A stretch of DNA of 62,548 nt, filler included, from 6 parts of 6 records of this genome joined end to end with filler, not necessarily neighbours in it; one strand, 5' to 3'. Numbered from the whole stretch's first letter, positions 1-20,591 are shown. Notes: a model not told the origin generated them from the letters alone. Numbers and translations are program-made.

Positions 1-500
1 ACCGTACACATGCTGCTGATTTCCACATTTTTATCGGTCTGCTGGGAAATAGCTCCCAAATCCTCCAGGCGGACCTCCAGCGCTTTTGCGATCACTTCCA
101 GGAAACGGCCTGTACCTGCGGCACATTTGTCGTTCATTATGAAATTCTCCACCCGGCCGCCATTGCCGATGCGGATGACCTTGCTGTCCTGGCCGCCGAT
201 ATCCAGGATGGTTGCCGCATCCGGAAACAGGAAATGGACACCGGCTGCGTGGCAGGTGATCTCGGTGACGTTTTTGCCGGAAAACGGCAGGTTGTCACGC
301 CCGTACCCCGTGGTCACCACAAAATCCACATCCTCTTGCGATAATCCGGCCCGGTCCAGTACCTGCTGATACACCCGCTCACCCGATTTTCGGCTCCTGC
401 CGCCGGTCAAATCAATGGTAGATCCTAAAATTTTTTTATCATCACCCAACACAACGCCCTTGGTGGCAAGGGAGCCGGAATCAATACCAATTGTAATCAT
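1..500 (-). CDS. 2-hydroxyacyl-CoA dehydratase activator (HgdC/FldI/BadFG-type ASKHA ATPase with [4Fe-4S]); 3' end truncated by window edge
   Basis: Absent from the ORF track because there is no stop in the window. Manual translation from ATG at 500: MITIGIDSGSLATK...TTGYGR...TEITCHAAG...DIGGQDSK...MNDKCAAGTGRFLE...ISSMCTV. ATGA overlap with the upstream stop; AGGAG RBS. Confidence 0.95.
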   Translation of the reverse strand, partial: MITIGIDSGSLATKGVVLGDDKKILGSTIDLTGGRSRKSGERVYQQVLDRAGLSQEDVDFVVTTGYGRDNLPFSGKNVTEITCHAAGVHFLFPDAATILDIGGQDSKVIRIGNGGRVENFIMNDKCAAGTGRFLEVIAKALEVRLEDLGAISQQTDKNVEISSMCT

Positions 501-1819: not shown

Positions 1820-1840
1820 ATCTCTCCTGTTACACTGCTT

Positions 1841-1894
1841 ATTTACCATGAAGAAATGCGTTCTTCATGCTCTTCATGTCTTTCATGGTGAAAA
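1841..1894. repeat. Imperfect inverted repeat built from 9-10 bp CTTCATG units (REP/MITE-like remnant)
   Basis: ttaccatgaagaa...ttcttcatgc tcttcatgtc tttcatggtgaaaa: three tandem TTCATG units; the outer arms ACCATGAA/TTCATGGT can pair. Confidence 0.5.
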
Positions 1895-4900: not shown

Positions 4901-7900
4901 GGTCCAGGTCAAAGCAGATGCCGGCATGGCGTTGGGTATGGGTTTGGATCTCTTCGTCCTGCCTCTCAAGTGACAGTCCGGCAGGATTTTGAAGGGTCAG
5001 GTCGTGGATGCCCAGGACCTTTTTTTCGCCGGGTGCATGAATTTTTACCACCGGTTGTCCGTCCCGGGTGGGAAAGGTACTCCTCAACGCGTCATGGCGG
5101 CAGATCAGCCAGTGCAGGCTGCGTTCCAGGGCTTCAATATTCAGCTCACCCGTCAATTCAAGTGCCCCAGGCATGTTGTACACGTCGGTGCCACTGTCCT
5201 CCAGCTGGTTGAGAAACCAGAGACGCTGTTGGGCAAAAGATAGGACTTGGGGGATCTCATCCGGCTGTTTGTGGATGGAAGGCAGGCTGGCCGTGGTGCC
5301 GGCTGTATCAATGGCGTTGGCCAGCTCATTCAGCCGGGGATGCTCGAAAACCGCGCTCACCGGCAACTCCACCTGGAAATTGTCCCTGATCCGGGCGATG
5401 AGCTGGGTGGCTGACAGGGAATGTCCTCCCAGGTCAAAGAAATTGTCATGACGATGCACCGTTTCCCGCCAAAGCAGTGTGCCCCAGACGCCGGCCAAAA
5501 TTTTTTCGGTGGAGGTGACCGGCTTTTCACCGGCAGCGGTTTCCGCCTGGGGCAGGGGCAAAGCCTTGCGGTCGGTTTTACCGTTGGGTGTCAGCGCAAA
5601 TCTTTCCAATACCATGAAGTGGCTGGGAATCATATAATCGGGCAATAGGGATTTGAGCCGTTCTTTCACTTCGGCCGGATTAATCAGCGAACCGGCTTGG
5701 GGGGATTTGTCCCCGGTGAGATAAGCGATGAGGCGCTTGTCATTGTCAACCCCATGCAGTGTGACGACAGCTTCCTTGACGGATGGGAGCTGGCCCAGAA
5801 CGGTTTCGATTTCCCCCAGCTCAATGCGGAAGCCCCGCAGCTTGACCTGAAGGTCCATGCGTCCCAGGAACTCAATGTCGCCGCCGGGCAGCAGGCGCGC
5901 CAGGTCTCCGGTCCGGTAGATGCGCTGGGGCTTGCCGAAAATTTCGATTTCAATGAATTTTTCTTGGGTCAGCCCGGGGCGGTTAAGATAGCCTTGTGCC
6001 AGGCCCGGTCCGCCCGTGACCAGTTCCCCGGGGACACCTACGGGCACAGGTTGCAGGTTTTCATCCACGATGTAAACCGTGGTGTTGGCAATGGGCTTTC
6101 CAATGGGAATGGAACTTGTGTGTGCCTGGCGATTGATGGGATAACAGCAGGTAAAGGTGGTATTTTCCGTGGGGCCGTACCCGTTTACCAGCCGAGTATT
6201 GGGCAGCAGCCCCACTGCCTTTTCAATATGGGATACGGACAGGGTTTCCCCGCCGGTCATCAGCTGTTTGACCCCTTGCAGCGCATGGGGGTGCTCCTCC
6301 AGCATGACATTGAACAGGCTGCTGGTCAGCCATAAAATGGTGATTTTTTCCCTGCCTAACACCTTGGCAAGGGATGCCAGGTCCTTTTGCCGGGCCGGCA
6401 TAATCACGAGCTTTGCGCCGTTTAGCAGGGCGCCCCAGATTTCCAGCGTGGCCGCGTCAAAGGAGACCGGCGCATATTGGAGAAAGGTCTGGGTTGAATC
6501 CAGTTGGGCAAAGTTGTTGTTTTTCACCAGCCGGACCACAGCCTGGTGGGGAACGGCAACGCCCTTGGGCTGCCCGGTTGACCCCGAGGTATAGTTAACA
6601 TAGGCCAGACCAGTCACCTGGATGACCATGTCGGGGCGAGCCTTTGGCAGGCCGTTCACATCAATTTCGTCCAGAAAGACCGGGCGGCAAAGGGGGGGCA
6701 TCTCTTCCAGGGGCAATTGTGTTTTCAGGTCACTTTGGGTGAGCAGCAGGTGCGCGGCGCAATCCTTAAGCATATACCGGATCCGGTCGGCCGGATAAGC
6801 CGGGTCAATGGGAACATAGGTCCCGCCCGCTTTGAGAATACCCAATACCCCAACCACGGTTTCAAATGAACGTTCCAAAGCGATGGCGATCAAGGGCGTG
6901 TCCGGCTTTTCTGCCATTTGGACCTTCCGGCTGAGTCCGGATATGTAGTGGGCCAGCTGGTTGGCCTTTTCATCCAGCTCGCGGTAGGTAAGGCACCGCC
7001 CTTCAAAAGCCAAGGCAATGGCGCCAGGCGTTTTGTCCACCTGGATCTGGAACAGGTCCACGATGTTGCTCTCTTTGGGGTAGGCCGTGGCCGTGTCATT
7101 CCAGGTCTGCCATGCGGCCGTCTCCTTAGGCGTAAGCATGGGCAGGTCTTTGAGGCGCTGGGCCGGGTTGTTCGCAATGGCGGTGAGCAATACTTCAAAA
7201 TGGCCTGCCATGCGTTGGATAGTGGCTGCCTGGAACAGATCTGCGGCATATTCCCATTCACAGTACAGGGCGCCGTCCCGCTCCTCGGCGTTGAGGCTCA
7301 GATCAAATTTGGCCACAGGGAACTCAACATCCAAAGCCGTGGTCTCGATACCCGGTAGATCCAGGCAGATCGGGTCATTGTTTTGTACCCCCAGCATTAC
7401 CTGGAACAGGGGACTGTGACTCAGGCTGCGGCGGGGCTGAAGCCGCTCCACCAGCATTTCAAAGGGAAGATTCTGGTTTGCATAGGCGTCCAGGCAGGTT
7501 TTGCGGGTATCTGCCAACAGATCGGCAACAGATTGGTCCGGCCGGAGCCGGCCCCGGAGCACCAGGGTATTCACGAAAAAACCGATGGTCTCATGGGTGT
7601 CGCTGTGGGTGCGGTTCGCAATGGGCGTGCCCACGCATAGATCATCCACCCGGCAATAACGGGACAGCAGGATATAATAGGTGCTGAGCAGGGTCATGAA
7701 AAGACTCACGTTCTGCTTGCGGCTCAATTCCGTGAGGCGCTTGGTCAAGGCAGGTGACAATCGATGCAGGTGCCGACCGCCCTTAAAACTTTGGCGTGCC
7801 GGCCGGGGGGTGTCCAAGGGCAGTTCCAGCAGTTCCGGGGCACCGGCCAGTTGCAGGCGCCAATAGTCCTCTTGTTTTTGCAGCACCTCTCCTTGCAGCC

Positions 7901-10900
7901 AGTTGCGCTGCCAGGCCGCATAGTCCACGTACTGGATGTAAAGCTGCGACAGGTCCGGCTCTTTGCCCTGGGCAAACGCAATACAGGCCTGCCCCAGATC
8001 CCGAATCAGCACGCCCATGGACCAGGCGTCACTGATAATATGGTGCATATTCAGCAGCAGCACCGACTTTTCCCGGCCCAGTATCAGCAGGGCAGCCTTG
8101 AACAGGGGCCCCCGGCTCAAGTCAAAGGGCTCGACGGCATGGCGGTTGGCACGGTTGCGCACGGCCTCATCCTGTTCACTGGGAGCAAGTCCGGTGAGAT
8201 CATGAATTGCCAGGATCTGCTGGTCATCGGGTGCCTGGATCTGCACCACGGCCTCTCCTCCCTGGTCCGGGAAAGCGCTCCTCAGGGAATCATGGCGGCG
8301 GACCAGCCATTTCAGGCCCTGCTTCAGGGATTCGATATCCAGGTTGCCGGACAATTGCAGGGCTGTGGGCATGTTATATACCGCGCTGTTATTTTCCTCC
8401 AGGCGGTTCAGGAACCACAAACGCTGCTGGGCAAAGGATAGGCTTGGGTCTGCACCATCCGGCTGTTTGCGGATGGGTGGCAGACCGGCTGTGCCCATGG
8501 CAGCTTCAATGGCCTTTGCCAGGTCTGCCAGCCGGGGATGGTCAAAAACGGCCCGCACCGGCAGTTCTACCTGGAAGCCGTCCCGGATCCGGGCGGTGAG
8601 CAGGGTGGCTGTCAGGGAGTGTCCGCCCAGGACGAAAAAATGGGCCTGCCGGTTGATTGTTGCGCCGCTGAAAAGCCCGGACCACAGGCCCGACAATATC
8701 TCTTCGGTGGGTGTGGCCGGCCTGTTGTTTTTGGCAGTGGTTCCGGCCTGGGGATCGGGCAATGCCTTGCGGTCTATTTTGCCGTTGGGGGTCAACGGCA
8801 GTCTGTCCAGAACCATGAAATGATTTGGAATCATATAGTCGGGTAACTGCTGTTTGAGCTGTTCTCTTAATTGGGCCGGTTCAAGCCCGGATTCAGTTTC
8901 ATGGGATTGGGCCGAACTTGTGATATAGGCGGCCAGCCGCCTGTCACCATTGGTTTCATACACGGTTACGGCAGCTTCTTTGACAAAGGGGTGTTGTGCC
9001 AGCACCGCCTCTATTTCCCCCAGTTCGATGCGGAAACCGCGTAGTTTGACCTGGTGGTCCAGTCGTCCCATATAGTCCAGGTTGCCGTCAGGGAGAAACC
9101 GGGCCAGGTCTCCGGTTTTGTAGATACGTTCGGTTTTGCCGAACAGTTGGATCTCCACGAATTTTTCAGCCGTCAGCCCGGGACGGTTGAGATACCCCCG
9201 GGCAAGCCCTGCGCCGGCAATGCATAGTTCCCCCGGAATGCCCGGCGGGACGGGTTGGTTGTGGGTATCCAGGATATGGATGCGGACGTTGGGAATCGCT
9301 CGGCCGATGTGAGGCGCACCATCTTGGTCCGGGGAACAGACAGCCATGGTTGCGCAAACCGTATTCTCGGTGGGCCCGTAAGCATTGATAAAACGGACCT
9401 TGCCGGCCCATTGGCCCATCAGTTCCGCCGGGCAGGCCTCACCGGCCACTACAAGGGTTTTCAGCCCCTGGAGGGCCTGGCTTGGCAGGTTGTTGACGAA
9501 AGAGGGGGGCAAGGTGACATGGCTGATTTTTTCATCAGCCATCAAGGCGGTAAATTCCGTTGGATCCAGCAGGGTGTATTTGGACGCGATGTATAAGGTC
9601 CCGCCACTCAACAAAGTGGTGGTGATTTCAGAGACGGACGCGTCAAAACTAAAAGAGGCGAACTGTAACACCCGGCTGTCCGGCAGGAGTTGAAAAGTCT
9701 CGATTTGTGAAAAAACCAGGCTGACCAGCCCGGCATGTTCAATCATCACGCCCTTGGGCTTCCCGGTGGACCCCGAGGTATAAATCACATAGGCCAGGTC
9801 CGTCACGGTGGGGTTGGCCGAGAGATTATGCTTAGGCTGTGACCGGATTCCGTGGTCATCCAGGCAGATGACTTTCTGTGCCGTCGTATCAGTCGTACCA
9901 ATCGTATCAATGGAGAGGTGGGTTTTTAATCCGGCTTGAGTCAATAGCAGGGCAGGGGTGCTGTCCGTCAGCATATATTTGATGCGCTCCGCCGGATAGG
10001 TGGGGTCAATGGGCAAATAGGCACCTCCTGCTTTGAGTATCCCCAGAAGACCGATAACCATCTGGGCGGACTGCTCCACCGCAATGGCAATCAAAGGATT
10101 CTGCCGGTCCATTGATGCTGGAAAATGTTGCACCAGGTAATGCGCCAACCGGTTGGCGCGTTCATTGAGTTCGCGGTATGTTAACCGTTCGTCTTCAAAC
10201 ACAATCGCAATGGCACACGGCGTTTTTTCCGCCTGGTTTTCGAATAGCTCGACAATGGTTTCACCGAAGGGGAACTGCCTGGTGGTCTTGTTCCAGTCAA
10301 TGAGGCACCGGGTTTCGGCTTGGGTGAGCATGGGCAGGGTATGGATCTCCCGGTCCGGGGACACTGTGATACCTTCCAGGAGCACTTGCAGATGTTCTGA
10401 CATCCGTTGCACGGTTTCAGGCAAGAAGAGATCGCTGTTATAGCTCAAGCAGCCTGAAAGGGCACTTTTATCATCGTCAAAGGTCATGGAAACATCGAAC
10501 TGCCCTTCCATCTGGTCAAGGGCAATGCTGTGGGCTGTTACGCTTCCAGTGAAAAATCGCTTGGGGATCAGGGCCCGGGTCTCATAGGCGAAAAACGCCT
10601 GGACAAGGGGTGGATAGCTGGGGTCTCGTTCCGGCTGCAATTGTTCCATGAGCAAAGGGAAGGGATAGGGCTGGTGGTCCAGTCCGGTAAGTATCCGGTG
10701 CTGGTTTATCGCCAATTTTTTACGGAATGTTATTTGCGCTTCTTTGGGGAAACTTGCGCGCACTACCATGGGATTGACCAGGTAGCCCACCATGTCGTTA
10801 AACTCCCGGCGGCCCCGGACCGTGGAGGTGGGCACTCCCACAAGGATCTCCTCCTGGTCGGTATAGCGGTGGAGCATTATTTGGAAAGCGGTGAACAGCA

Positions 10901-13900
10901 CAGTGAACAAGGTACATTGCTCCCGGCGTGCTAAGGCCCTGAGCCGGCCGGTCAGTTCCGGGGGCAGGGTAAAGCGCAATGAGGCGCCGTTAAAAGTCTG
11001 TAGCCTTGGTCGGGGCCGGTCCGTGGGGAGCTGGAGAATGGATACGTGGCCTGCCAGCGTCTGATGCCAATAAGCGGCCATTTTTTCCTTTTCACCACCT
11101 GCCAGCAGGCGCTTTTCCCATTGAACAAAATCGGCATAGCCAGCCGGTAATGCGGGTAAATTGGCTTCTTTGTCCTGTATTTGAGCATCGTAAAGCGCAC
11201 AGATTTCTCTGCCTATGATGGCCATGGAACGGGCATCTCCGGCAATATGATGGAGTCCAAGCAGCAGCAGGGGGCCCTGCCGGGCATTCAGGAATCCGTC
11301 CACACGGAAAACGCCCTGTTCCAGCACAAATGGCTGTTGGGACGCTTGTCGCACCTCATCCATCAGCCGCTCTTCATTCCAGTCCGATGCGTCCCATTGG
11401 CGGTACGCAGGTTCCAGGGTTGGATCCACCCATTGGCAGGGCCGGCCATTTTTTTCAGCCACGCGGCTTTGCAGCATGGAATGGCGCGTGGCCAGTCGTT
11501 GCAGGGCGTGCTTGAGCAGGTCCGGATCCAGTCCGGTTTCGAACCGGAGCAGCAGGCCGGTGTTGTAAGCCGGGCTTTCAGGGGCGTTTCGGTAGATGAA
11601 CCAGAGGGCCTGCTGACCCGCTGACAGCGGAGTAAAATCGTTTTGGCCCCGGGCGCCTGTTTTACCTGTTTCTTCTTTAATTGGAAGGTGAGCCGCAAGG
11701 CCCGTCAGGGTGGGGTGTTCCAGGATGAGAGCGCTTGACAGGTCTGTTTCCCGGCCCATGAGGCCTTGGATCCGGTTGCGCAGCTCCATAGCCATGAGCG
11801 AATCCAGCCCCAGGTCAAAGAAATTGGTGTCAGGGTCCGGCAGGTCGTCCAGCCCCAAAATGGCCTGTAATGCCTGTTGAAGGCGATGAACCAGGGGTTT
11901 ATCTTCCTTTTCCTGGGACGCCCGGGGTGCAGGTTCCTCCAGCGCGGCTGTTACATCGTTTGCCGGATGGGGGGACGCGTCAGCCGTTTGAGTTGTTTGC
12001 ACCCAACAGCGGTGCCGCTGGAAAGGGTATGTGGGCAACGCCACTTTTCGCCGGGGCCATGGGGCGTCCCATGCAGCCCAGTCGGGATTAGTCCCGGCCA
12101 TGTACAGGCGCGAAAGGGCCTGGGCTGTTTGCCGGTTGTCCTCTGTTTTCCGGCGCAGGCTGGCGGCCGCGACCGGGGCTTTCCCTTCCGGCCAGCAATG
12201 CAGCGCCATGGCAGCAAGCACAGGGTGGGGACCGATTTCCAGCAGGATGTTGGCGCCCAATTTCGCGACAGTCGAGCAGCTTTTGGCAAACTGCACGGGT
12301 TTCCTGCTGTGGCGACGCCAATAGTCGCTGTCCGGCAGGTCAACCGGACTGAATGCGTTTCCGGTCAGATTACCGACCAGGGTGCGTTGGGGCGGCTGGA
12401 AGTTAAGGGTGGCCGCAAATTCGGCAAACTCATCCAGAATGGGTGAAAGCAGATGGGAATGGAAAGCCTGGCTGGTTTGCAGGCCCTGGATGCGCACGCC
12501 TGCCTGTTTAAACTTGCCCGCCACGGCATTCACCTCCGCTTCAGGTCCGCTGATGACCTGGTGGCCGCCGTTGTATGCCGCAATGGACAGCCCGGTGCCT
12601 GTTATGGCCTCGTCCACTTCGGCCGGCTGGGCAAAAATAGCGGTCATAGCCCCGCCCAGGGGCAGACCGCCCATGAGCAGACCCCGCCGGGTGACCAGGT
12701 GCAATGCATCTTTCAACGAGAATGCGCCCGCGGCATAGGCGGCCGTATACTCGCCCAGGCTGTGCCCCATCACCACATCCGGTTCAATACCCAGGGACCG
12801 CCACCATTCATACAGGGCCACTTCCAGGGAAAAAAGCGCGGGCTGGGTATAACGGGTTTGGTTGAGCTCTTCCCCGTGAGCCGGATCAAAAAGAAGGGAT
12901 GTGAGGGGGATATCCATCAAGGAATCTAAAATGGCGGCACACCGATCCAGAACTTTTCGGAATATTGGCTGGGTGTCATAGAGCCCCCGGCCCATGCCGC
13001 TATACTGGCTGCCCTGGCCGGTGAACAGCATCGCCACCACAGGGGCTTGCCCGGATTGGGCCGGGGGCGTCTGGGACAGGCGTTTTGAAAGTTGATCCAA
13101 GGTGTCAACCACGACGGCTGTCCTGTGTGCAAAATGGTCCCGTCCAGTGGCGGCGGTAAAGCAGATATCCGCCAGGGGGAGATCCGGATGCCGGTCCAGC
13201 CATTGGCCGTAACGGGCAGTCAGGTCCGCCACTGCCGGTCCTGTTTTCCCGGATATCGGTAAAATGTGCACAGGGCGCCGGACCACATTATCCCCAAGCG
13301 CTGTCGGCGCGTCTCCAGCTTCAACCAGCAGGTGGGCATTGGTGCCGCTCATGCCGAAACTGCTGATGCCTGCGATCCTGGACGTGGCAGGCCAGTCCCT
13401 GGTGACGGTCGACACCTGGAACGGCAGTTTGTCCCAGGGGATACGTGGATTGGGGGTCTTGAAATGGGGCTGCCCGGGAATCCGGCCGTGACCCATAGCC
13501 AGGATCACCTTGATAAACCCGGCAATACCCGCGGCTGCTTCGGAATGGCCGATGTTGCTTTTTACCGAACCGATGGCCAGAGGTCGTTCCGGGTCACGGC
13601 CGGGTCCGTACACCCTGCCCGCAGCCTGCATTTCCAGGGGATCTCCAAGTATGGTGCCGGTGCCGTGGGCCTCCAGATAACCAACCTGGTCGGGCGTAAG
13701 ATCGGCCCGTTGCAGGGCGGTGCGCAGCAGCTTTTCCTGGGCCGCGACATTGGGCACGGTCAAGCCGCCGGAGGGGCCGTCGTTGTTAACGGCGCTTGCG
13801 CGAATGACTCCGAGGATATTATCCTGGTCTTGCCGGGCGTCTGCCAGGCGCTTGAGTACCACCATGCCGCACCCTTCCCCCCTGGAAAAGCCGTTGGCAG

Positions 13901-14606
13901 AGGCGTCAAAGGCCTTGCTGCGCCCGTCCGGACTCAGGGCCTTGGCCCGTGACAGAAAAATATAGTTGTGGGGGCTGAGTATGACCTGGACTCCGCCTGC
14001 CAGGGCCAATTCACACTCTTTCAAGCGCAGTGCCTGGCAGGCCGTATGTACGGCCACAAGGGAACTGGAACAGGCCGTGTTTATGGACTGGGTTTGGCCC
14101 TGCACGCCCAGGACATAGGCGATGCGTCCGGCTACGAATGCCTGGAGATTGCCGGTACCGCTGTAAAGATCGATTTGGGCCGGGGCCTGAAACGCGGCCC
14201 GGCCATAGTCATTGTCACAAACGCCCACAAAGACGCCCACCTCGCAATTTCTAAGGCTGCCCGGCGCAATGGCAGCGTTTTCCAGGGCTTCCCAACTCAC
14301 CTCTAAAGCCAGTCTTTGCTGGGGATCAATGGCGTTTGCCGCACGGGGCGGTATCCCGAAAAAAGCGGGATCGAATTGGTCCACCTGGGACAGGAAACCA
14401 CCGTACCGGGTGGTGATGGTTCCCGGCTTTTCCGGATCAGGATCGTAAAAGGCATCCACATCAAAGCGGTCAGGCGGGATCTGGGTAATCGCATCTCCCC
14501 CCTTTTCCAAAAGGTCCCAAAAGGCTTCCGGATTTTCTGCGCCCGGGAAGCGGCATGACAAGCCTATAATCGCAATATCGAACTGGGTGTACTCTTTTGA
14601 CGCCAT
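1974..14606 (-). CDS. Hybrid type I PKS-NRPS: KS-AT-ACP-C-A(Tyr)-T-C-A(Val)-T-C-A(Lys/Arg/Orn-like)-T; no KR, TE or R domain
   Basis: KS motifs TACSSSL, HGTGT, KSNIGH; AT motifs GHSLG and QAFHS (malonyl-like); ACP GLDSL; C motifs HHIAGD, HHIISD, HHIISD; three A domains (YTSG.TG.PKG, YGP.E, TGD, NGK); three GGHSL T domains. A-domain codes read by eye against GrsA: DASTVAAVCK, DALWMGGTFK, DTEDVGSVAK. Confidence 0.95.
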   Translation of the reverse strand: MASKEYTQFDIAIIGLSCRFPGAENPEAFWDLLEKGGDAITQIPPDRFDVDAFYDPDPEKPGTITTRYGGFLSQVDQFDPAFFGIPPRAANAIDPQQRLALEVSWEALENAAIAPGSLRNCEVGVFVGVCDNDYGRAAFQAPAQIDLYSGTGNLQAFVAGRIAYVLGVQGQTQSINTACSSSLVAVHTACQALRLKECELALAGGVQVILSPHNYIFLSRAKALSPDGRSKAFDASANGFSRGEGCGMVVLKRLADARQDQDNILGVIRASAVNNDGPSGGLTVPNVAAQEKLLRTALQRADLTPDQVGYLEAHGTGTILGDPLEMQAAGRVYGPGRDPERPLAIGSVKSNIGHSEAAAGIAGFIKVILAMGHGRIPGQPHFKTPNPRIPWDKLPFQVSTVTRDWPATSRIAGISSFGMSGTNAHLLVEAGDAPTALGDNVVRRPVHILPISGKTGPAVADLTARYGQWLDRHPDLPLADICFTAATGRDHFAHRTAVVVDTLDQLSKRLSQTPPAQSGQAPVVAMLFTGQGSQYSGMGRGLYDTQPIFRKVLDRCAAILDSLMDIPLTSLLFDPAHGEELNQTRYTQPALFSLEVALYEWWRSLGIEPDVVMGHSLGEYTAAYAAGAFSLKDALHLVTRRGLLMGGLPLGGAMTAIFAQPAEVDEAITGTGLSIAAYNGGHQVISGPEAEVNAVAGKFKQAGVRIQGLQTSQAFHSHLLSPILDEFAEFAATLNFQPPQRTLVGNLTGNAFSPVDLPDSDYWRRHSRKPVQFAKSCSTVAKLGANILLEIGPHPVLAAMALHCWPEGKAPVAAASLRRKTEDNRQTAQALSRLYMAGTNPDWAAWDAPWPRRKVALPTYPFQRHRCWVQTTQTADASPHPANDVTAALEEPAPRASQEKEDKPLVHRLQQALQAILGLDDLPDPDTNFFDLGLDSLMAMELRNRIQGLMGRETDLSSALILEHPTLTGLAAHLPIKEETGKTGARGQNDFTPLSAGQQALWFIYRNAPESPAYNTGLLLRFETGLDPDLLKHALQRLATRHSMLQSRVAEKNGRPCQWVDPTLEPAYRQWDASDWNEERLMDEVRQASQQPFVLEQGVFRVDGFLNARQGPLLLLGLHHIAGDARSMAIIGREICALYDAQIQDKEANLPALPAGYADFVQWEKRLLAGGEKEKMAAYWHQTLAGHVSILQLPTDRPRPRLQTFNGASLRFTLPPELTGRLRALARREQCTLFTVLFTAFQIMLHRYTDQEEILVGVPTSTVRGRREFNDMVGYLVNPMVVRASFPKEAQITFRKKLAINQHRILTGLDHQPYPFPLLMEQLQPERDPSYPPLVQAFFAYETRALIPKRFFTGSVTAHSIALDQMEGQFDVSMTFDDDKSALSGCLSYNSDLFLPETVQRMSEHLQVLLEGITVSPDREIHTLPMLTQAETRCLIDWNKTTRQFPFGETIVELFENQAEKTPCAIAIVFEDERLTYRELNERANRLAHYLVQHFPASMDRQNPLIAIAVEQSAQMVIGLLGILKAGGAYLPIDPTYPAERIKYMLTDSTPALLLTQAGLKTHLSIDTIGTTDTTAQKVICLDDHGIRSQPKHNLSANPTVTDLAYVIYTSGSTGKPKGVMIEHAGLVSLVFSQIETFQLLPDSRVLQFASFSFDASVSEITTTLLSGGTLYIASKYTLLDPTEFTALMADEKISHVTLPPSFVNNLPSQALQGLKTLVVAGEACPAELMGQWAGKVRFINAYGPTENTVCATMAVCSPDQDGAPHIGRAIPNVRIHILDTHNQPVPPGIPGELCIAGAGLARGYLNRPGLTAEKFVEIQLFGKTERIYKTGDLARFLPDGNLDYMGRLDHQVKLRGFRIELGEIEAVLAQHPFVKEAAVTVYETNGDRRLAAYITSSAQSHETESGLEPAQLREQLKQQLPDYMIPNHFMVLDRLPLTPNGKIDRKALPDPQAGTTAKNNRPATPTEEILSGLWSGLFSGATINRQAHFFVLGGHSLTATLLTARIRDGFQVELPVRAVFDHPRLADLAKAIEAAMGTAGLPPIRKQPDGADPSLSFAQQRLWFLNRLEENNSAVYNMPTALQLSGNLDIESLKQGLKWLVRRHDSLRSAFPDQGGEAVVQIQAPDDQQILAIHDLTGLAPSEQDEAVRNRANRHAVEPFDLSRGPLFKAALLILGREKSVLLLNMHHIISDAWSMGVLIRDLGQACIAFAQGKEPDLSQLYIQYVDYAAWQRNWLQGEVLQKQEDYWRLQLAGAPELLELPLDTPRPARQSFKGGRHLHRLSPALTKRLTELSRKQNVSLFMTLLSTYYILLSRYCRVDDLCVGTPIANRTHSDTHETIGFFVNTLVLRGRLRPDQSVADLLADTRKTCLDAYANQNLPFEMLVERLQPRRSLSHSPLFQVMLGVQNNDPICLDLPGIETTALDVEFPVAKFDLSLNAEERDGALYCEWEYAADLFQAATIQRMAGHFEVLLTAIANNPAQRLKDLPMLTPKETAAWQTWNDTATAYPKESNIVDLFQIQVDKTPGAIALAFEGRCLTYRELDEKANQLAHYISGLSRKVQMAEKPDTPLIAIALERSFETVVGVLGILKAGGTYVPIDPAYPADRIRYMLKDCAAHLLLTQSDLKTQLPLEEMPPLCRPVFLDEIDVNGLPKARPDMVIQVTGLAYVNYTSGSTGQPKGVAVPHQAVVRLVKNNNFAQLDSTQTFLQYAPVSFDAATLEIWGALLNGAKLVIMPARQKDLASLAKVLGREKITILWLTSSLFNVMLEEHPHALQGVKQLMTGGETLSVSHIEKAVGLLPNTRLVNGYGPTENTTFTCCYPINRQAHTSSIPIGKPIANTTVYIVDENLQPVPVGVPGELVTGGPGLAQGYLNRPGLTQEKFIEIEIFGKPQRIYRTGDLARLLPGGDIEFLGRMDLQVKLRGFRIELGEIETVLGQLPSVKEAVVTLHGVDNDKRLIAYLTGDKSPQAGSLINPAEVKERLKSLLPDYMIPSHFMVLERFALTPNGKTDRKALPLPQAETAAGEKPVTSTEKILAGVWGTLLWRETVHRHDNFFDLGGHSLSATQLIARIRDNFQVELPVSAVFEHPRLNELANAIDTAGTTASLPSIHKQPDEIPQVLSFAQQRLWFLNQLEDSGTDVYNMPGALELTGELNIEALERSLHWLICRHDALRSTFPTRDGQPVVKIHAPGEKKVLGIHDLTLQNPAGLSLERQDEEIQTHTQRHAGICFDLDQGPLFKADLLRLTAQKSVLLLNMHHIISDGWSMGVFMRDWHRAYTAFSQGKAPDLPPLVIQYGDYAIWQREWLQGRVLQRQVDYWQGRLANAPELLELPLDTPRPPQQSYKGAHYFTSLPPDLAKALNGLSRELNMSLFMTLLTGFYILLFRYSRMDDVCVGTPIANRTHSSTDDLIGFFVNTLVLRSRLHPDQSVAGLLADTRTTCLEAYSHQDIPFEMLVEQLQPTRSLSHSPLFQVMFGLQNNDLVSPDLPGLAVTSLPIDYPISKFDLSLNMEERDGELHCWWEYATDLFQPSTIERMAGHFQVLLQAMADDPAQPVSHLPMLTPKEAALVQSWNDTAADMPADTTIVDLFEWQAAKTPDRIAVISKGSRLTYGQLNEKANQAANHLLSHPEFGAGHNPLAAIFMDRSPEMVIGMLAILKSGGAYVPVDPGYPGARIRHILDDSGVSLVLTQSTLKPRLPLGETEQAFAVVSLDDLDLTGQSRQNPAIKIEAADLAYVIYTSGTTGSPKGVMIHHLGLGNFIRSAIDAYGLTSHDRVLQFASLSFDTAVEEIHMTLVSGAALILRNQEMIGSTETFLTACAAHELTVLDLPTAFWHSLLTDLPTIKKLWPKSIRLVVIGGEAVSAEHVERWLEHFGAFPVLLNSYGPAETTVAATLFPIRPIHIDGGTVIPIGRPISNTRIYIMDPYLQPLPPGIPGELCIAGAGLARGYLNRPELTTEKFNEIKILGKKERIYRTGDLARWLPNGNIEFLGRMDHQVKLRGFRIELGEIESVLRRHPAVGDTVVKLVEDGDNKRLSAYITGEGKFDDPSLVPQLREWLKKSVPDYMIPAHFTLLDALPLTPNGKVDRKKLPAPELLTSTKGYEAPASPAEEIVAQIWAEVLGVKRVGRHDDFFALGGHSLLVVQLVNRVQSLFEIRIVVRELFEAPTVAGITRKLIAHEPQKGQVDTIAHLQKEIDGMSEEEIRAALGDA

Positions 14607-14656: not shown

Positions 14657-14911
14657 CTAACGGATCTGCCGGTGCTTGCCTTGGACAAATGCCGTCAAGG
14701 CATTGATCGACATAAAATGTTCCGGCACGATATCACCGTCATCAAAGGTGATGGTGTACTCTTTTTCTAGATGGGAGACCGTGTTGACGATGGTTAAGGA
14801 ATCCATGAAACCTGCGTCAATCAGGTTGAAGTCATCGTCAAACCCTTCGGGCGCAAGGCCTTTGAGGCATTGGTCAAGAATGTAGTCGCGCAGTGTCTGA
14901 TGTAGGTTCAT
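14657..14911 (-). CDS. Stand-alone acyl carrier protein
   Basis: 84 aa, acidic, with phosphopantetheine motif LIDAGFMDSL; lies between the ligase and the PKS-NRPS. Confidence 0.9.
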   Translation of the reverse strand: MNLHQTLRDYILDQCLKGLAPEGFDDDFNLIDAGFMDSLTIVNTVSHLEKEYTITFDDGDIVPEHFMSINALTAFVQGKHRQIR

Positions 14912-14982: not shown

Positions 14983-16467
14983 TCAACTATTTAGCTGTTT
15001 GCCGGCATTCCGGATAATTTTGCCGCTGGCCGTGCGGGCCAGGGAAGGCACCCATTGGAATTGGACCGGGACTTTGTAGCCGGCCAGGTACCGGCTGCAA
15101 TGGGCTTTCAGCTCGGTGTCATCCATTGGTTCGGTGCCGTTGGCCGGCACCAGAAGGGCCATGGGTGTTTCTCCAAGCCGCTGCGCTTTGATGCCGAACA
15201 CGCAGGCCTCCAGGACGGCTGGATGCCGCGTTAGTACCGACTCCACCTCCTGGGGGAAAAATTTCATGCCTGCCACACTGATCATCTCTTTGCTTCGTCC
15301 GGAAATGGTGAGAAATCCTTGGTCGTCGATTACACCGAGGTCCCCGGTTGCCAGCCAGCCGTTGTTTCCGTGGAGAATATCGTTTTGGAGCTGCCAGGGG
15401 TCGTAGTAGGCATCCAGCAAGCCGGGACCCTTGAGTAGAATCTCTCCGGCCTCTTCTTTCGATTCTTTTTGAGGTTGTCTTGCCAGTTTGACAGTGTATG
15501 CTGGCAGCGGCTTGCCCACGGAGCCCCGTTTTTCCCAGGGTTGGTCAAGATTCACGGCCGGCAAACCGATTTCGATAATACCGTAGGTTTCGTTCAGGGG
15601 CTGGCCAAAGCGCCGGTAAAAGGCCTGGGCAAGTTCCGTGGCCAGGCGGGTGGTGGTGGCGATTGCCAGGCGAAGTGGCGGAAGAGATTGTCCGCTTTGG
15701 TCATGGGTCATCAATTCGTAGTGGGTGGGGGTTGCGTAAATAATGGTGGCCCGGTGACGGGTGGCGGCCTGCAAAATGCTGCGGCCAAAGGCATTTTGGG
15801 GCAGGATAATGGTGGCGCCAAAGCTTAAGTATGCCACAATGGAGACCGCAAAGTGGTAGGACATGGAGAGCATCCAGACAATGCGGTCCGCAGGTCCGAT
15901 GCCAAGTCCCTGGTTGGCGGCTTGGATTCGCGCAAGGATGGTTTCGTGGGAGAGCACTACGCCTTTGGCCGCACCGGTTGTGCCCGAGGTGAAACGGATA
16001 AAGGCCGGGTTCAGTTCGGCCAGTCCAGGCGGCGGTGTCCGCTGGGGTTTGACCGGAAAAAAGGAGGCCTGTTCAGTGAGGACGGCGGCGTCGGCCTGGG
16101 CAAAGGGGGCGAACGGGCTGCTGCCGGCACCTGTGGACCCGGTGGAGATGATGGCGTCAATGGAGATATGGTTCAGTATCCGCTGTTTTTCTTCCTCTGC
16201 CAGTTCCATGGGAATCGGAGTAACCGCAGCCCCGCAGGCCCAGATAGCGTAAGTCAGGGCAATGTACTCCTCTCCGCTGGGGCAGTGCAGGCCGACGTTC
16301 ATCCCTTTGCCGGTACCAAAGGTCCGAAGCGTCTCTTCCAGGCGCCGGATGGTGCGGCAAAAATCGCCATAGGTGACCCGGGTTTCGTCTGAGGGGCCCA
16401 GGATCACGGGCTGGTTGGGCTGTTCATCAGCCTGCCGGAAGAACAGGTCCGCTAAGTTCAATGACAT
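14983..16467 (-). CDS. AMP-dependent acyl-CoA/acyl-ACP ligase (starter loading)
   Basis: FTSGTTGAAKG, ETYGIIEIG, TGDLG, SGRSKEMI, PQEVE, RTASGKI adenylate-forming motifs. Confidence 0.9.
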   Translation of the reverse strand: MSLNLADLFFRQADEQPNQPVILGPSDETRVTYGDFCRTIRRLEETLRTFGTGKGMNVGLHCPSGEEYIALTYAIWACGAAVTPIPMELAEEEKQRILNHISIDAIISTGSTGAGSSPFAPFAQADAAVLTEQASFFPVKPQRTPPPGLAELNPAFIRFTSGTTGAAKGVVLSHETILARIQAANQGLGIGPADRIVWMLSMSYHFAVSIVAYLSFGATIILPQNAFGRSILQAATRHRATIIYATPTHYELMTHDQSGQSLPPLRLAIATTTRLATELAQAFYRRFGQPLNETYGIIEIGLPAVNLDQPWEKRGSVGKPLPAYTVKLARQPQKESKEEAGEILLKGPGLLDAYYDPWQLQNDILHGNNGWLATGDLGVIDDQGFLTISGRSKEMISVAGMKFFPQEVESVLTRHPAVLEACVFGIKAQRLGETPMALLVPANGTEPMDDTELKAHCSRYLAGYKVPVQFQWVPSLARTASGKIIRNAGKQLNS

Positions 16468-16470
16468 GGT

Positions 16471-19400
16471 TTACGCAGTCTTCCTTTCTTTGATAATCGC
16501 GTTGACAAGTCCTTGGCCCATGGCCCAGCAGGTTCCCACCACCCTTGCCGATGCCTGGGCCCTGGGCTCGGCTGAAAAGCATTTGCCTGCCGTAAACAGG
16601 TTGTTTAATCCACTTATTTTTAGTGCGCACAGCGGGATGTCATAGCGGTGGCCCGGCGGGAAGTGGTCCAGGCTCACCCCCTGGTCCGGGTCCCAGTATT
16701 CAATGGGCCAGCAGGCCTGGCATACGGCGTCGGGAAAACGCCGGCCCTTTTTGAGGTCAGATTCGGTGAGCGTATAATCGCCTTGGACCTGGTGTCCGTT
16801 GCGAATTCCCAGGCGTCCGCCGGCATCTATGACAGCCCGGCTGAACCCGGGCAGGACCTGGAGAAAGGCCAGCAGATCATTTGTCACCTGTTCCATGCGG
16901 GCCTCATTAAAGCCAGAAGGCTTGAGGTTGAATTTTACATAAACCTCATCCGGATAGACACCGCTGTCCAGCCAGATGGTGCTGCATTCCGGCGGCAGTT
17001 CACGGTTTTGCGCTGCCTTGCGGATGCGAAGCAGCAGGGCCACGCTTTTGGGGAATGTGACGGCATCCGGCGCAACCCCGCGCAGCCGGACGATCATCCC
17101 GGCAAGGGTCTGGCCATCGACCGTATCCCCCACGTTTTTCACATGCCGGACGATGTCGGCCCGGCCTGTGGTGTCGATGACGGTATGGGGCGTCAACGTT
17201 TGGGTCTCGCCGTCATGGGTGACGGTCATGGTCTCAATGTTTCCATTGGCCACCGAGACATCCGTGATGTGCATGTTATATCTGATATCAATGCCGGGGT
17301 ACTCATCCATCCACTCCCGGATTACCCGGGCGTAGATTTCAGGGTCTACGCTCAAGGTCCAGTTTTTTCCGATACGTCGCTTTCGGGTGTGCGGGCAGGC
17401 CTGGCTGAGCCTTTCCGCAAGTTCCACGGGCAGCCCCGGGTTCAGGAATTCACCCTGGTCATCAAACAGGCCGCCCAAGGTATGGATAAGGGTGTGGGCC
17501 ACAGTGCCGCCGGGCTGTTCCGATTGTTCCAGCAGCAGGACATCTGAGCCCTGGGCCGCTGCCGCCAGGGCGCAGGCCGTACCGGCGGCGCCGGCCCCGA
17601 CAATCACGATGGGCTTTGACGGGCCGGGTTCGGATTGGGCCTCTTTGGTCGGTTGAGACTGGCTGGCTTTCATCTCAGCCAGCGGCATCATGGCGTTGCC
17701 GATGGCAGCGGTGCCCAGGGCGAAATGGATTCCCATGGCCGTGATAATGTCGATCCGGCCAAAAAGGGTGCCCAGCAGTACTGAGCCCATGCCCATGTAA
17801 CAAATTCCCAGGCTGCGCTTGAGATTGGTCTCCAGCCGACCGGACAATTCCAGCAACTCACACAGGTGGGTGAGATCCGGATCGGTGAGGATGATGTCCG
17901 CAACATCCGTGGCAAGTGTGGTGGCCCCGCGCAGGGATATGGAAAGGTCGGCCTCCTGCATGGCAATGGCGTCGTTGACCCCGTCGCCGATAAAGCAGAC
18001 GCAGCGGCCTTCGGACTTGAACCGGCGGACGATATCCGCCTTGTCTTCCGGCAGCACCTCAGCAAAAATACTGTCCGCTCCCAGCGCTTCAGCCAGCTTT
18101 TGAGTGGGCGCGGCATAGTCGCCGGAAACGATGCCGATGTGTTGGATGCCCTTCTGTCGTAACGCGTTGAAGACCATCTGGACTTCCGGGCGCACCCTGG
18201 CCCAAAGTTCAATAAGGCCCGCGATTTGGCGGTCGATGGCCACCATCACCAGAGAGTGGCCGTCGGCATGGATCTCATCCTGCCTGGAAATGGTTTCCTG
18301 GGTCAGGGGAATTGATTCCGCTTCCATGAACCGGGCGCTGCCCACATGGATGGTGAGATCCCGGTACTGGACCATAATGCCGAAACCCTGCCGGTATTCG
18401 ATATCGTCCAAATTTTCCACGTCCAGTCCCGTTTCCCGGGCACGCCGGACAATGGCCTTGGCAATGGGGTGGGTAAGCTGGTGTTCGGCCAGGGCCGCAT
18501 AAAAAAGAATCTGTTCTTCTCCATAGTCCGGGTGGACGCAAAACAGGGAGTTGACCGTTAGTTCACCGTCGGTAAGTGTGCCGGTTTTGTCAAATAAAAA
18601 TGTGTCGATGGCGCTGATTTGTTCAATGCCTTGCCCCTGCTTAACCAGGATATGGCGATGGGAGGCCACGGATTGGTAGTTGAGGGTGGCCAGGGGCGCC
18701 AGCACACGGATGGCCTGAATCGTGTTGCCGCTGAGAATGACCATGGCCCCCACCGGGCCAAATGCCACAAGTCCGACGCCGGCTATGACCATGAACGGTA
18801 GATTGGCTTTTTCCGCCCACTGTTCCCCACGCAGCTGCAGCTCGGTCTTGGATTGCAGGGAGTTGGCCAGGATTTCACTGATCCGGCCAATGGTGGTTTC
18901 GCGGCCCGACTTTTCAACCCTTACATGAAGCCAGCCTGTCAGGATCAGGGTAGAGGCGAATACCGGTTCCCCAATGCCTTTTTCAACCGGATAGGATTCG
19001 CCGGTAAAGGCGTGTTGGTCCACGCTGGCCATACCCGACACCACTTGGCCGTCTATGGGAATGGTTTCTCCGGCCCGGATCACAAGGATATCGCCCTGCC
19101 TCGCCTCTTCCAGGGGATTTTCCAGCTCGATTCCCTCTTTAATGATCCAGACCTTTTGATGGGGGTCGAAAAGACTGTCAACCAGATTGCTGGTAAGTTT
19201 TTTCTCAGCCGTTTGCGACGCCTTGGCCTGGATGGCGTCCCCAACATAGGCAAATCCCAGGCCGATACCGGCCGTGATGTAACGGCCCGTGCCCAACAGC
19301 AGCAGGTTGCCGGTCCCCATGAGAAGGTGGCTGTCCACCTTGCCTTCCTTGAGAAGCCGTTGCCTGACAGCCATTTCCATCCGGCGGTAAAAGGGAAGCA

Positions 19401-19716
19401 TGGTGTAGGTGTAAGCCGCGATATTGAGCAGCGTAAAGGTGGGGGATATATAGCGTAGGAAAGCGGTGCCCAGGGTGACCGCACTCATTTGCTGGTAGTG
19501 GGATCGCTTTTGTTTCGCAAGAGCCCTGGGGGCTTCAAGCCGGGCCGGATCTTCCAGGTCCTTTTGCGCTTCCTGATTTACGGTTTCTTCGTCGTCCCTG
19601 TGCGGTTCTGCCGGGAAGGGGGCAGGCTCTTGTTTTTTTTCAGGTTCGTCTTTCATAAATTTTTCATAAAGCTTGACGCCTGCGTATGTAAGTAGCACAG
19701 CGGTGAGATCTAACAT
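16471..19716 (-). CDS. Fusion of an atypical P1B-type ATPase (about 19716-17680) and an FAD-dependent oxidoreductase (FAD_oxidored-like, about 17613-16471)
   Basis: ATPase motifs TGES, DKTGTLT, HP, GDGVND. After a Q/S/P-rich linker: VIVGAGAAG, LLEQ...PGG, DTTG, YDIP..L, NLFTAGKCFSA, ASARV.GTC.AMGQ. One continuous frame. ATG 19716 is 6 nt from AAGGAG (the track uses GTG 19722). Confidence 0.85.
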   Translation of the reverse strand: MLDLTAVLLTYAGVKLYEKFMKDEPEKKQEPAPFPAEPHRDDEETVNQEAQKDLEDPARLEAPRALAKQKRSHYQQMSAVTLGTAFLRYISPTFTLLNIAAYTYTMLPFYRRMEMAVRQRLLKEGKVDSHLLMGTGNLLLLGTGRYITAGIGLGFAYVGDAIQAKASQTAEKKLTSNLVDSLFDPHQKVWIIKEGIELENPLEEARQGDILVIRAGETIPIDGQVVSGMASVDQHAFTGESYPVEKGIGEPVFASTLILTGWLHVRVEKSGRETTIGRISEILANSLQSKTELQLRGEQWAEKANLPFMVIAGVGLVAFGPVGAMVILSGNTIQAIRVLAPLATLNYQSVASHRHILVKQGQGIEQISAIDTFLFDKTGTLTDGELTVNSLFCVHPDYGEEQILFYAALAEHQLTHPIAKAIVRRARETGLDVENLDDIEYRQGFGIMVQYRDLTIHVGSARFMEAESIPLTQETISRQDEIHADGHSLVMVAIDRQIAGLIELWARVRPEVQMVFNALRQKGIQHIGIVSGDYAAPTQKLAEALGADSIFAEVLPEDKADIVRRFKSEGRCVCFIGDGVNDAIAMQEADLSISLRGATTLATDVADIILTDPDLTHLCELLELSGRLETNLKRSLGICYMGMGSVLLGTLFGRIDIITAMGIHFALGTAAIGNAMMPLAEMKASQSQPTKEAQSEPGPSKPIVIVGAGAAGTACALAAAAQGSDVLLLEQSEQPGGTVAHTLIHTLGGLFDDQGEFLNPGLPVELAERLSQACPHTRKRRIGKNWTLSVDPEIYARVIREWMDEYPGIDIRYNMHITDVSVANGNIETMTVTHDGETQTLTPHTVIDTTGRADIVRHVKNVGDTVDGQTLAGMIVRLRGVAPDAVTFPKSVALLLRIRKAAQNRELPPECSTIWLDSGVYPDEVYVKFNLKPSGFNEARMEQVTNDLLAFLQVLPGFSRAVIDAGGRLGIRNGHQVQGDYTLTESDLKKGRRFPDAVCQACWPIEYWDPDQGVSLDHFPPGHRYDIPLCALKISGLNNLFTAGKCFSAEPRAQASARVVGTCWAMGQGLVNAIIKERKTA

Positions 19717-20257
19717 CTCCACTCCTTATGATTGTATTTTAAGGGACGCAGATTATGCAATAAATTATAAAAAGCTAAACCCATAGGAAAGAAAATTTTC
19801 CCAAGTTATGACATATAAATATATATTGATGAAAATCAATGGATAGCGATTTTTCTTTTATTAAGCAATGTATAACAAAGAATAAAAACATTATCAAGAG
19901 CTCGAAATATGGCTCCAACCAGGCATGACCCCATATGAAGATTTTCGCAGTTCAGATATTTATAAATCACGGTCATAACCAATGTCCGCCAAAGACCCAG
20001 GCGGGGTGTGTACATGTCATCGCATACCGGCTCCAGTATGCGTGAGAGCGGTCATTACAGGATTATTCGACAATTTCAATAAAAAGATGTTAAAAGATAT
20101 GATCCGGTCGGAATACGCTGCAAGCCGGGGTTTTTGAATAGTAAGGCATAAAGGTAAAAGGGATGCGACTTACCTGGCGCCCCTGATTTTTCCGTTACAT
20201 GTCATATTTAAGGTGAATGGGAACAAAAGAAACATAAGGGTAGTTGGAAAATTGAGA

Positions 20258-20491: not shown

Positions 20492-20591
20492 NNNNNNNNN
20501 NNNNNNNNNNNNNNNNNNNNNNNNNNNNNNNNNNNTTAATTAATTAANNNNNNNNNNNNNNNNNNNNNNNNNNNNNNNNNNNNNNNNNNNN
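20492..20591. other. Artificial contig-joining spacer
   Basis: 44 N + TTAATTAATTAA (stops in all frames) + 44 N; identical at five positions. Confidence 0.98.

Follow-up and report, generated by a model that had tools for sequence, protein, structure and literature searches.

A P1B-like ATPase fused in frame to a flavoenzyme heads a biosynthetic operon and lies one stop codon away from its split form

In a 62,548-nt stretch of DNA, made of six parts of six records of one genome joined with filler and hereafter called the window, a single minus-strand gene at 16471..19716 joins a P-type ATPase to a flavin adenine dinucleotide (FAD)-dependent oxidoreductase through a low-complexity linker. The fusion is genuine, is conserved in relatives and lies one stop codon away from a split form, and its flavoenzyme part belongs to a conserved cassette with an adenylating ligase and an acyl carrier protein (ACP). 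The explanation that we somewhat favour as a whole is that of a bifunctional membrane protein in which the flavoenzyme acts on an ACP-bound starter unit and the pump serves the same pathway, the two working side by side.

Results

The fused gene and its relatives

The gene encodes 1081 aa (P0001) in one frame, from the ATG at 19716 to the stop codon at 16471-16473, without internal stop, as the initial annotation had proposed with a single ORF (open reading frame) of about 1080 aa joining a P1B-like ATPase to a flavoenzyme, though without giving its strand. An upstream GTG at 19722 in the ORF listing is an alternative start that would give 1083 aa. The features of the gene are as follows.

16471..19716, minus strand: fused ORF, 1081 aa plus stop, comprising ATPase, linker and flavoenzyme (translation, Pfam, NCBIfam)
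19722..19727, minus strand: Shine-Dalgarno-like AAGGAG, 5 nt 5' of the ATG at 19716 (sequence)
17680..19716, minus strand: P-type ATPase part, residues 1-679, with a conserved N-terminal helix, a variable charged stretch, transmembrane (TM) helices and actuator (A), phosphorylation (P) and nucleotide-binding (N) domains (Pfam, alignment)
17614..17679, minus strand: low-complexity linker, residues 680-701 (sequence, alignment)
16474..17613, minus strand: PF12831 FAD oxidoreductase domain, residues 702-1081, with GAGAAG (residues 707-712) at 17581-17598 (Pfam, alignment, AlphaFold2 model, fold search)

Pfam places E1-E2_ATPase at residues 187-322 (1.4e-27), a HAD-type Hydrolase domain at 370-590 (4.3e-32) and FAD_oxidored (PF12831) at 703-1069 (3.1e-56; 191.9 bits vs a gathering threshold of 27). 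The last match covers profile positions 2-389 of 416, and the flavoenzyme, which had been described as apparently complete, is complete. The linker, in which MKASQSQPTKEAQSEPGPSK forms residues 682-701, had been said to lack a clear ribosome-binding site for a separate start; in agreement, no Shine-Dalgarno-like (GGAG-like) run is found in the 20 nt 5' of its internal ATG (M682, 17673-17671). Its length is about 22 aa here and about 20-80 aa across fused homologues.

Given that the window is a draft of concatenated contigs, a stop codon could have been lost, or a frameshift introduced, at the junction in sequencing or assembly, and such a defect was looked for. This artefact is practically excluded by an independent Logan assembly, in which a 5760-nt contig of run X1, the probable source, agrees with the gene along its full 3246 nt (0 differences, 0 gaps), by the lack of any N inside the gene and by 14 fused homologues from different projects. 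A single contig of run X13, from a different organism, covers 16489-19716 without a break; it shows 275 differences from the window and 29 gaps. In run X1, a diverged copy of the whole gene region is present as well, on a 5146-nt contig at about three times the depth; it may belong to a related organism or be a paralogue.

The best 120 matches of a homologue search with the fused protein were examined. Fourteen of them are fused (986-1140 aa, 62-90% identity in this search and 60-91% overall) and originate from ENA, Logan, NCBI and JGI assemblies, so that the possibility of a fusion absent from all relatives, raised with the initial annotation, is answered in the negative. The named carriers include Desulfobacter vibrioformis (P0005, 86% identical), a Desulfobacterales metagenome-assembled genome (MAG) and an Alteromonadaceae MAG. 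The fusion is kept in them even where identity of the flavoenzyme part falls to 60%, and a search for longer proteins with the flavoenzyme domain retrieves the same 14 homologues. The other 106 matches are without the flavoenzyme domain and consist of the ATPase only (598-740 aa), except P0115, which has 1064 aa and carries an HMA_2 domain. In a library clustered at 50% identity, a single full-length match (P0003) is present among the best 150 representatives; the known fused forms therefore constitute one moderately diverse group. Public databases name the fused architecture 'heavy metal translocating P-type ATPase'. At the level of literature abstracts, we found no study of such an ATPase-flavoenzyme fusion or of a P-type ATPase in a non-ribosomal peptide synthetase (NRPS) cluster, in line with the earlier remark that no characterised P-type ATPase is known to carry such a fusion.

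Fused and split forms are one stop codon apart

The fusion arose by loss of one stop codon between in-frame, coupled neighbours. A comparison of orthologous clusters for fused and split genes, which the initial annotation had suggested, reveals that both forms exist. Candidatus Methylobacter oryzae KRF1 (L001) and nine Methylobacter-like metagenome contigs carry genes for the ATPase, then the flavoenzyme, the ligase, the ACP and an NRPS, at 60-64% identity. The order is that of the window, and in L083, whose ATPase has 712 aa and whose flavoenzyme has 382 aa, the ATPase is likewise the first gene; the L001-type operon differs in having two genes with a stop and one codon between them, and a ketosynthase-acyltransferase (KS-AT) module was not detected in L001. 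The junction was examined in ten of these loci. In nine, the ATPase ends in '..AA*', followed by one codon and by the flavoenzyme start 'MS..' in the same frame, whereas the tenth, L081, has no stop and is fused. Since stop, codon and ATG are in frame in the split loci, one point mutation interconverts the split and fused forms, and the spacing of 3 nt between stop and start implies translational coupling.

In a quick maximum-likelihood analysis of the ATPase parts of 62 proteins (IQ-TREE), a single clade (SH-aLRT 89) unites 14 of the 15 fused forms with the solo ATPase P0016 (4 members on 5 contigs), and the fused P0015 groups beside a solo clade. This tree requires at least two to three fusion or fission events. 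The flavoenzyme has also been joined to the ligase, in P0392 (899 aa) and P0394 (885 aa), the ligase part of the former being 46% identical to the window ligase. In P0393 (936 aa), the same flavoenzyme domain occurs with a methyltransferase and a luciferase-like monooxygenase, a third kind of fusion partner.

A pump of P1B descent with an altered TM4 site

Two motifs of the ATPase part are central to its classification.

18577..18591, minus strand: DKTGT phosphorylation motif, residues 376-380 (alignment)
18679..18699, minus strand: TM4 motif APLATLN, residues 340-346, at the place of the CopA CPC site, with the invariant R337 just before it (alignment)

The pump is a P-type ATPase that descends from the P1B group and, judging by its intact motifs, appears to be catalytically competent. 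TGES (238), DKTGT (376) and GDGVND (577) are invariant in a 24-sequence alignment (A1), as are H416 and P417 in THPIA; the HP dipeptide in the nucleotide-binding domain is a motif of P1B ATPases. The protein passes the NCBIfam model TIGR01525, 'heavy metal translocating P-type ATPase' (355.2 vs a cut-off of 346.25), and does not reach the P1B subtype models (IB1_Cu, 243.7 vs 397; IB2_Cd, 273.9 vs 313.5). The lineage implied by the earlier term 'P1B-like pump' is thus upheld, but the CPx metal site, the defining feature of such pumps, is absent. Signatures of the P1B metal site in TM4 listed in PMC4932525 include CPC, CPH, SPC and PCP. The HMMER alignment sets the CopA stretch 'ACPCAFGLATP' against 'LA-P----LATL', the TM4 region being 4-5 residues shorter than that of CopA.

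The same holds for the family, in which APLAT(L/I)N comes after an invariant Arg in TM4 and Asn and Pro are conserved in TM6. No CPx-type motif is found in any of 126 family proteins, nor in the ATPases of loci L002-L031, and the form xPLxTxN is present in 92 of the 126. Ordinary P1B loci from the same scan have CPC, CPG or CPH in 34 of 47 cases and other motifs, such as SCA, in 13. As Arg, Thr, Asn and Pro in TM4 and TM6 take the place of Cys-Pro-Cys, the protein would not be a classical Cu/Zn/Cd pump, and the annotation 'Cu2+-exporting ATPase' carried by these genes is probably wrong. These proteins appear to form a distinct cysteine-less subfamily. A cytoplasmic HMA or His-rich domain for metal binding is frequent in P1B pumps, though not required; neither HMA nor HMA_2 is detected in the window protein by Pfam at E <= 0.01.

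The best solved sequence relatives are the CopA proteins of A. fulgidus (7r0g/3j09) and L. pneumophila (3rfu) and ZntA (4umv), at E 2e-59 to 4e-42. They share with the window pump the A, P and N domains, TGES, DKTGT, GDGxND and the HP dipeptide. Unlike them, the window pump has R..APLATLN in place of CPC/CPx, is without HMA, and possesses a conserved N-terminal helix and a C-terminal enzyme. The alignment with CopA spans the protein from residue 133 onward. P1B ATPases have eight TM helices (MA, MB, M1-M6); in a simple hydropathy scan of the ATPase part, three stretches only stand out as clearly hydrophobic, namely 138-156, 310-342 and 635-679.

Other members of the family have gained C-terminal enzyme domains of their own: a class I S-adenosylmethionine (SAM) methyltransferase in P0307 (947 aa, 4 contigs) and a radical-SAM-like domain in P0365 (1023 aa), the latter a weak Pfam match (E 8e-5, below the cut-off) with CX3CX2C present. 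P0283 (958 aa, 10 contigs) combines a family ATPase with a 265-aa tail that matches no assigned domain. In eight loci of a Planctomycete/Kuenenia-type, cysteine-less subgroup (L010, L012, L016, L017, L023, L026, L027 and L030), a protein of ~800-870 aa adjoins the ATPase; it has an E1-E2_ATPase match only, with little or no Hydrolase match, and could be the degenerate half of a paired pump.

The flavoenzyme belongs to a starter cassette

Downstream of the fused gene, the operon continues with the following features.

16465..16473, minus strand: TAA-ACC-ATG at the boundary of the fused gene and the ligase gene, with a single codon between stop and start and no change of frame (sequence)
14983..16467, minus strand: stand-alone adenylating enzyme (AMP-binding ligase), 494 aa, acyl/aryl-CoA-ligase-like, probable acyl-ACP ligase (Pfam, NCBIfam, PDB sequence comparison)
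14657..14911, minus strand: stand-alone carrier protein (ACP), 84 aa, PP-binding, DSL serine motif (Pfam, motif)
1974..14606, minus strand: hybrid polyketide synthase (PKS)-NRPS, 4210 aa, KS-AT-thiolation (T) followed by three condensation-adenylation-thiolation (C-A-T) modules (Pfam)

The ligase start lies 3 nt past the stop of the fused gene, the same geometry as that of the ATPase/flavoenzyme junction in the split relatives. The adenylating enzyme and its carrier are equipped with AMP-binding, AMP-binding_C and PP-binding domains, the last with its conserved serine. The ligase is nearest to aryl/acyl-CoA ligases (MenE, 1e-45; feruloyl-CoA synthetase; FadD13) and reaches no NCBIfam cut-off.

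Metagenomes scanned with the flavoenzyme-family alignment A2 yielded 80 loci, 58 of them at 40% identity or above. Enough downstream DNA for a count of ligase linkage was available in 51 loci, in which genes within 300 nt were taken as adjacent. The ligase gene lies directly 3' of the flavoenzyme gene in 45 (42 within 300 nt and three overlapping by 1-4 nt); the order is ligase-ACP-flavoenzyme in two, and four have no ligase. This linkage holds down to 40% identity. Past the ACP, the next genes vary, with a PKS module in the window, an NRPS in Methylobacter and a lone C domain in L085. The adjacency of the ligase in 45 of 51 loci, together with this variation, identifies flavoenzyme, ligase and ACP as the conserved unit, a starter cassette. 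That the flavoenzyme would act with the ligase and the ACP on the starter unit is well supported by their linkage and by the FAD-ligase proteins, which provide a second Rosetta-stone fusion.

The arrangement is reminiscent of starter cassettes of the Plt type, in which PltF, PltL and PltE carry out prolyl-carrier dehydrogenation and PltA, like Bmp2 and Mpy16, is a halogenase: an adenylating enzyme of ~490 aa, a carrier of ~85 aa and a flavoenzyme come before chain extension. The window ligase differs in approaching aryl/acyl-CoA ligases and not amino-acid A domains, and the window flavoenzyme in belonging to PF12831 and not to the acyl-CoA dehydrogenases or PF04820, with no WxWxIP.

The AlphaFold2 model of the flavoenzyme domain (21-sequence alignment; pLDDT 91.2, pTM 0.90) predicts a single-FAD enzyme with a PHBH/GR2-like fold; this part of the protein is probably cytoplasmic. 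Foldseek gives TM scores of 0.40-0.54, and a wide VIA-align search gives Z 16-19 for 50 unrelated flavoenzyme classes (top 19.4). The best structural matches are single-FAD enzymes tied at Z 17-19 with 10-17% identity; they include geranylgeranyl reductases, FixC/ETF-QO, HspB, protoporphyrinogen oxidases, PqsL and UbiH, as well as the carrier-protein halogenases CndH, Bmp2, ChlB4, PltA and Mpy16. In a PDB sequence search with the flavoenzyme, the dinucleotide-binding motif alone was matched (best E 5e-4), and the ESM Atlas returned unnamed PF12831 clusters only. One cysteine is invariant in the 21-sequence alignment, which makes an iron-sulfur cluster unlikely.

Two candidate activities find no support in the sequence. 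The motif WxWxIP is characteristic of flavin-dependent halogenases; the protein has CWPIEYW and no WxWxIP, and PF04820 is not among its 12 Pfam hits (E <= 0.01), which speaks against a carrier-protein flavin halogenase. For a carrier dehydrogenase of the acyl-CoA-dehydrogenase type (PltE/RedW-like), no Pfam domain of that family was found.

Several of the tied neighbours are linked to quinones or associated with membranes (FixC/ETF-QO, 7koe; protoporphyrinogen oxidases, 1sez and 2ivd; phytoene desaturase, 5mog; Proteus L-amino-acid deaminase, 5i39). They are consistent with a function in which the flavoenzyme, as a dehydrogenase, would feed electrons to membrane quinone and the ATPase would mainly serve as an anchor. 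The family is found in aerobes and in strict anaerobes; Desulfobacter is a strict anaerobe, in which an O2-dependent reaction is unlikely, and this too would suit such electron disposal. We nevertheless consider it improbable. Stand-alone homologues of ~380 aa are the rule (501 matches), hydropathy indicates no membrane-spanning stretch in the flavoenzyme part apart from the Rossmann strand, and the conservation of every catalytic motif of the ATPase would be superfluous in a mere anchor.

A mechanistic coupling, in which the flavin domain acts on the pumped molecule (for example in an oxidative maturation during export) or gates the pump by its redox state, is equally doubtful. It would fit with the three different tailoring-type enzymes found at the same C-terminus within the family, and with the short linker of the window protein, which leaves the enzyme close to the point where TM6 emerges into the cytoplasm. 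The low complexity of the linker and its range of lengths among homologues suggest a loose tether instead; moreover, the genomic partners of the flavoenzyme, ligase and ACP, act at the start of the pathway and not on a finished product, and stand-alone flavoenzymes sit in clusters that have no pump. A predicted-complex run with ATPase residues 90-685 and the flavoenzyme domain gave a score of 0.00, with controls not run, and constitutes no evidence either way.

The ATPase is an optional partner of the cassette

The linkage of the ATPase was counted in the 31 cassette loci with at least 2.2 kb of upstream DNA. Ten have an ATPase, directly upstream in six and elsewhere in four: L085 and L098 carry it behind the ACP, L089 has it on the opposite strand, and in L094 it lies at a distance of 3 kb upstream. 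The ATPases of these last four loci form a separate deep subclade of the tree, so the association with the cassette arose more than once.

Several observations weigh against the favoured explanation. No ATPase is seen in 21 of the 31 loci. L111, a close cluster (flavoenzyme 64%, ligase 66%, KS-AT 67% identity), starts with the flavoenzyme gene, and no ATPase or remnant of one was found in 10 kb upstream (even at E <= 10) or in its 21 kb of sequence. Among the more distant ATPase relatives (L002-L031), most lack a flavoenzyme within 10 kb, and their neighbourhoods are heterogeneous. Some family members (P0305, P0284, P0360 and P0115) carry an N-terminal HMA or HMA_2 domain, so that the wider family may still transport a metal; HMA or HMA_2 also occurs in a deeper, mostly Planctomycete-like subgroup. 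The predicted fold of the flavoenzyme gives its class only, with reductases, oxidases, monooxygenases and halogenases tied. Finally, the fusion comes about so easily that its persistence is weak proof of a benefit, and the flavoenzyme fuses to its other neighbour as well. From the pump-less cassettes (L111 and the 21 loci) it follows that the pump is dispensable for the chemistry of the pathway, and the lack of an ATPase in L111 means that neither a transport-redox coupling nor a membrane anchoring of the assembly line, both of which had been suggested earlier, can be obligatory for the pathway.

There is a serious rival, less probable in our estimation though well worth retaining: an ion pump, loosely or not at all linked to the pathway, happened to precede the flavoenzyme gene in frame, and loss of the stop was without cost. 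A single point mutation suffices at the junction, both fusion and fission have occurred, fusion of the flavoenzyme to the ligase shows that its downstream neighbour is affected too, clusters without the ATPase exist and the HMA-bearing relatives suggest an ion as cargo. Against neutrality, the same cysteine-less family recurs in the ten cassette loci in four arrangements and two subclades, a frequency that we estimate, without having computed it, to be far above chance for a few-copy gene. In addition, the family gained two other C-terminal enzyme domains, and the stop-start spacing of the split loci implies coupled translation. The initial annotation had also entertained a recent chance fusion; 14 fused relatives down to 60% identity do not support a recent event, yet the route to it is trivial.

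Two further observations were made on pump-less and distant loci. In L111, a 1-kb AT-rich gap precedes the flavoenzyme gene, and flavoenzyme homology starts before the first in-frame ATG/GTG/TTG (L111:9950-10040), which suggests a non-canonical start or a small error. In L117, the flavoenzyme gene has an ATP-binding cassette (ABC) exporter 1.7 kb upstream. No common theme emerged in the neighbourhoods of 27 more distant ATPase loci.

Operon setting in the window

The fused gene is the first of a minus-strand biosynthetic operon, as the initial annotation had stated: ligase, ACP and PKS-NRPS lie downstream and non-coding DNA upstream. The remaining features of the cluster are as follows.

19728..20212, no strand: AT-rich non-coding region upstream of the operon (sequence reading, promoter scan)
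497..1849, minus strand: HGD-D family protein (2-hydroxyacyl-CoA dehydratase / double-cubane reductase-like, weak match; domain search)
3..500, minus strand: BcrAD/BadFG-type ATP-dependent activase, running past the window end (domain search)

On the 5' side, 490 nt of AT-rich non-coding DNA are followed by a divergent truncated ORF. A scan for the sigma-70 consensus only found no promoter-like site upstream of the fused gene on the minus strand. The cluster contig stops at 20501, so that 785 nt of DNA upstream of the fused gene are known; the join, at 20502-20591, is an N-run that includes TTAATTAATTAA (20536-20547), a spacer with stops in all six frames. The genes for sugar ABC transport and for DeoR and GntR regulators to the right of the N-run belong to another contig and are unlinked to the cluster.

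The megasynthase ends in T, neither a thioesterase (TE) nor a reductase (R) domain being found at its terminus. Only its third C domain has the canonical HHxxxDG, and its PKS module is without a ketoreductase (KR). The HGD-D protein and the activase after it (3-1849) would bring oxygen-sensitive radical chemistry into an assembly-line cluster, which leaves the window at this point.

Discussion

We propose that a stop codon was lost between the first two coupled genes of an operon for ATPase, flavoenzyme, acyl-ACP ligase, ACP and PKS/NRPS. The ligase would load a carboxylic acid onto the ACP, the flavoenzyme would oxidise or otherwise modify the ACP-tethered starter, and the KS of the PKS-NRPS would then accept the modified unit. 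It can be hypothesised that the fusion sets a 1:1 ratio of the two activities and keeps the flavoenzyme next to the pump on the inner side of the membrane. Most likely, the pump would serve the pathway, by export of the product or by movement of a pathway-linked solute, and pump and flavoenzyme would probably work side by side and not as one redox-driven transporter. The cysteine-less site and the repeated fusion to tailoring enzymes together suggest that this pump serves such pathways and differs from an ordinary pump for metal resistance.

The P1B-5 ATPases, such as Nia, have a C-terminal hemerythrin-like domain and thereby set a precedent for P1B-lineage pumps that end in a soluble domain of redox type. 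Unlike it, the domain described here is a 380-aa cassette flavoenzyme and not a small metal/O2 sensor, and the TM4 motif is not PCP. Nia of S. meliloti is presented in PMC4932525 as a Ni/Fe pump of the P1B-5 group. The M. capsulatus genome paper describes a different NRPS and ordinary CopA genes (PMC517821).

The known exporters of bacterial natural-product clusters are of the ABC, MFS, RND or MATE type, and we know of no P-type ATPase shown to serve such a cluster. P-type ATPases with organic cargo transport lipids (P4) or polyamines (P5B). Three independent C-terminal enzyme fusions and the repeated recruitment into PKS/NRPS clusters raise the speculative idea, which we regard as unlikely though attractive, that the cysteine-less P1B-derived ATPases are an unrecognised class of pumps whose cargo would be organic, a secondary metabolite or its precursor, and which would be complexed with cytoplasmic tailoring enzymes.

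The subfamily is annotated as 'heavy metal translocating' without having the metal site, and it has repeatedly been joined to a flavoenzyme-ligase-ACP cassette and to three kinds of tailoring enzyme. The split and fused forms, one stop codon apart, constitute a natural experimental pair. If the pump does carry a product or a precursor, the shift of P-type ATPases towards organic cargo would extend to the bacterial P1B branch, and a new marker for genome mining would be at hand. The finding thus hints that this pump family may serve natural-product pathways rather than classical heavy-metal export.

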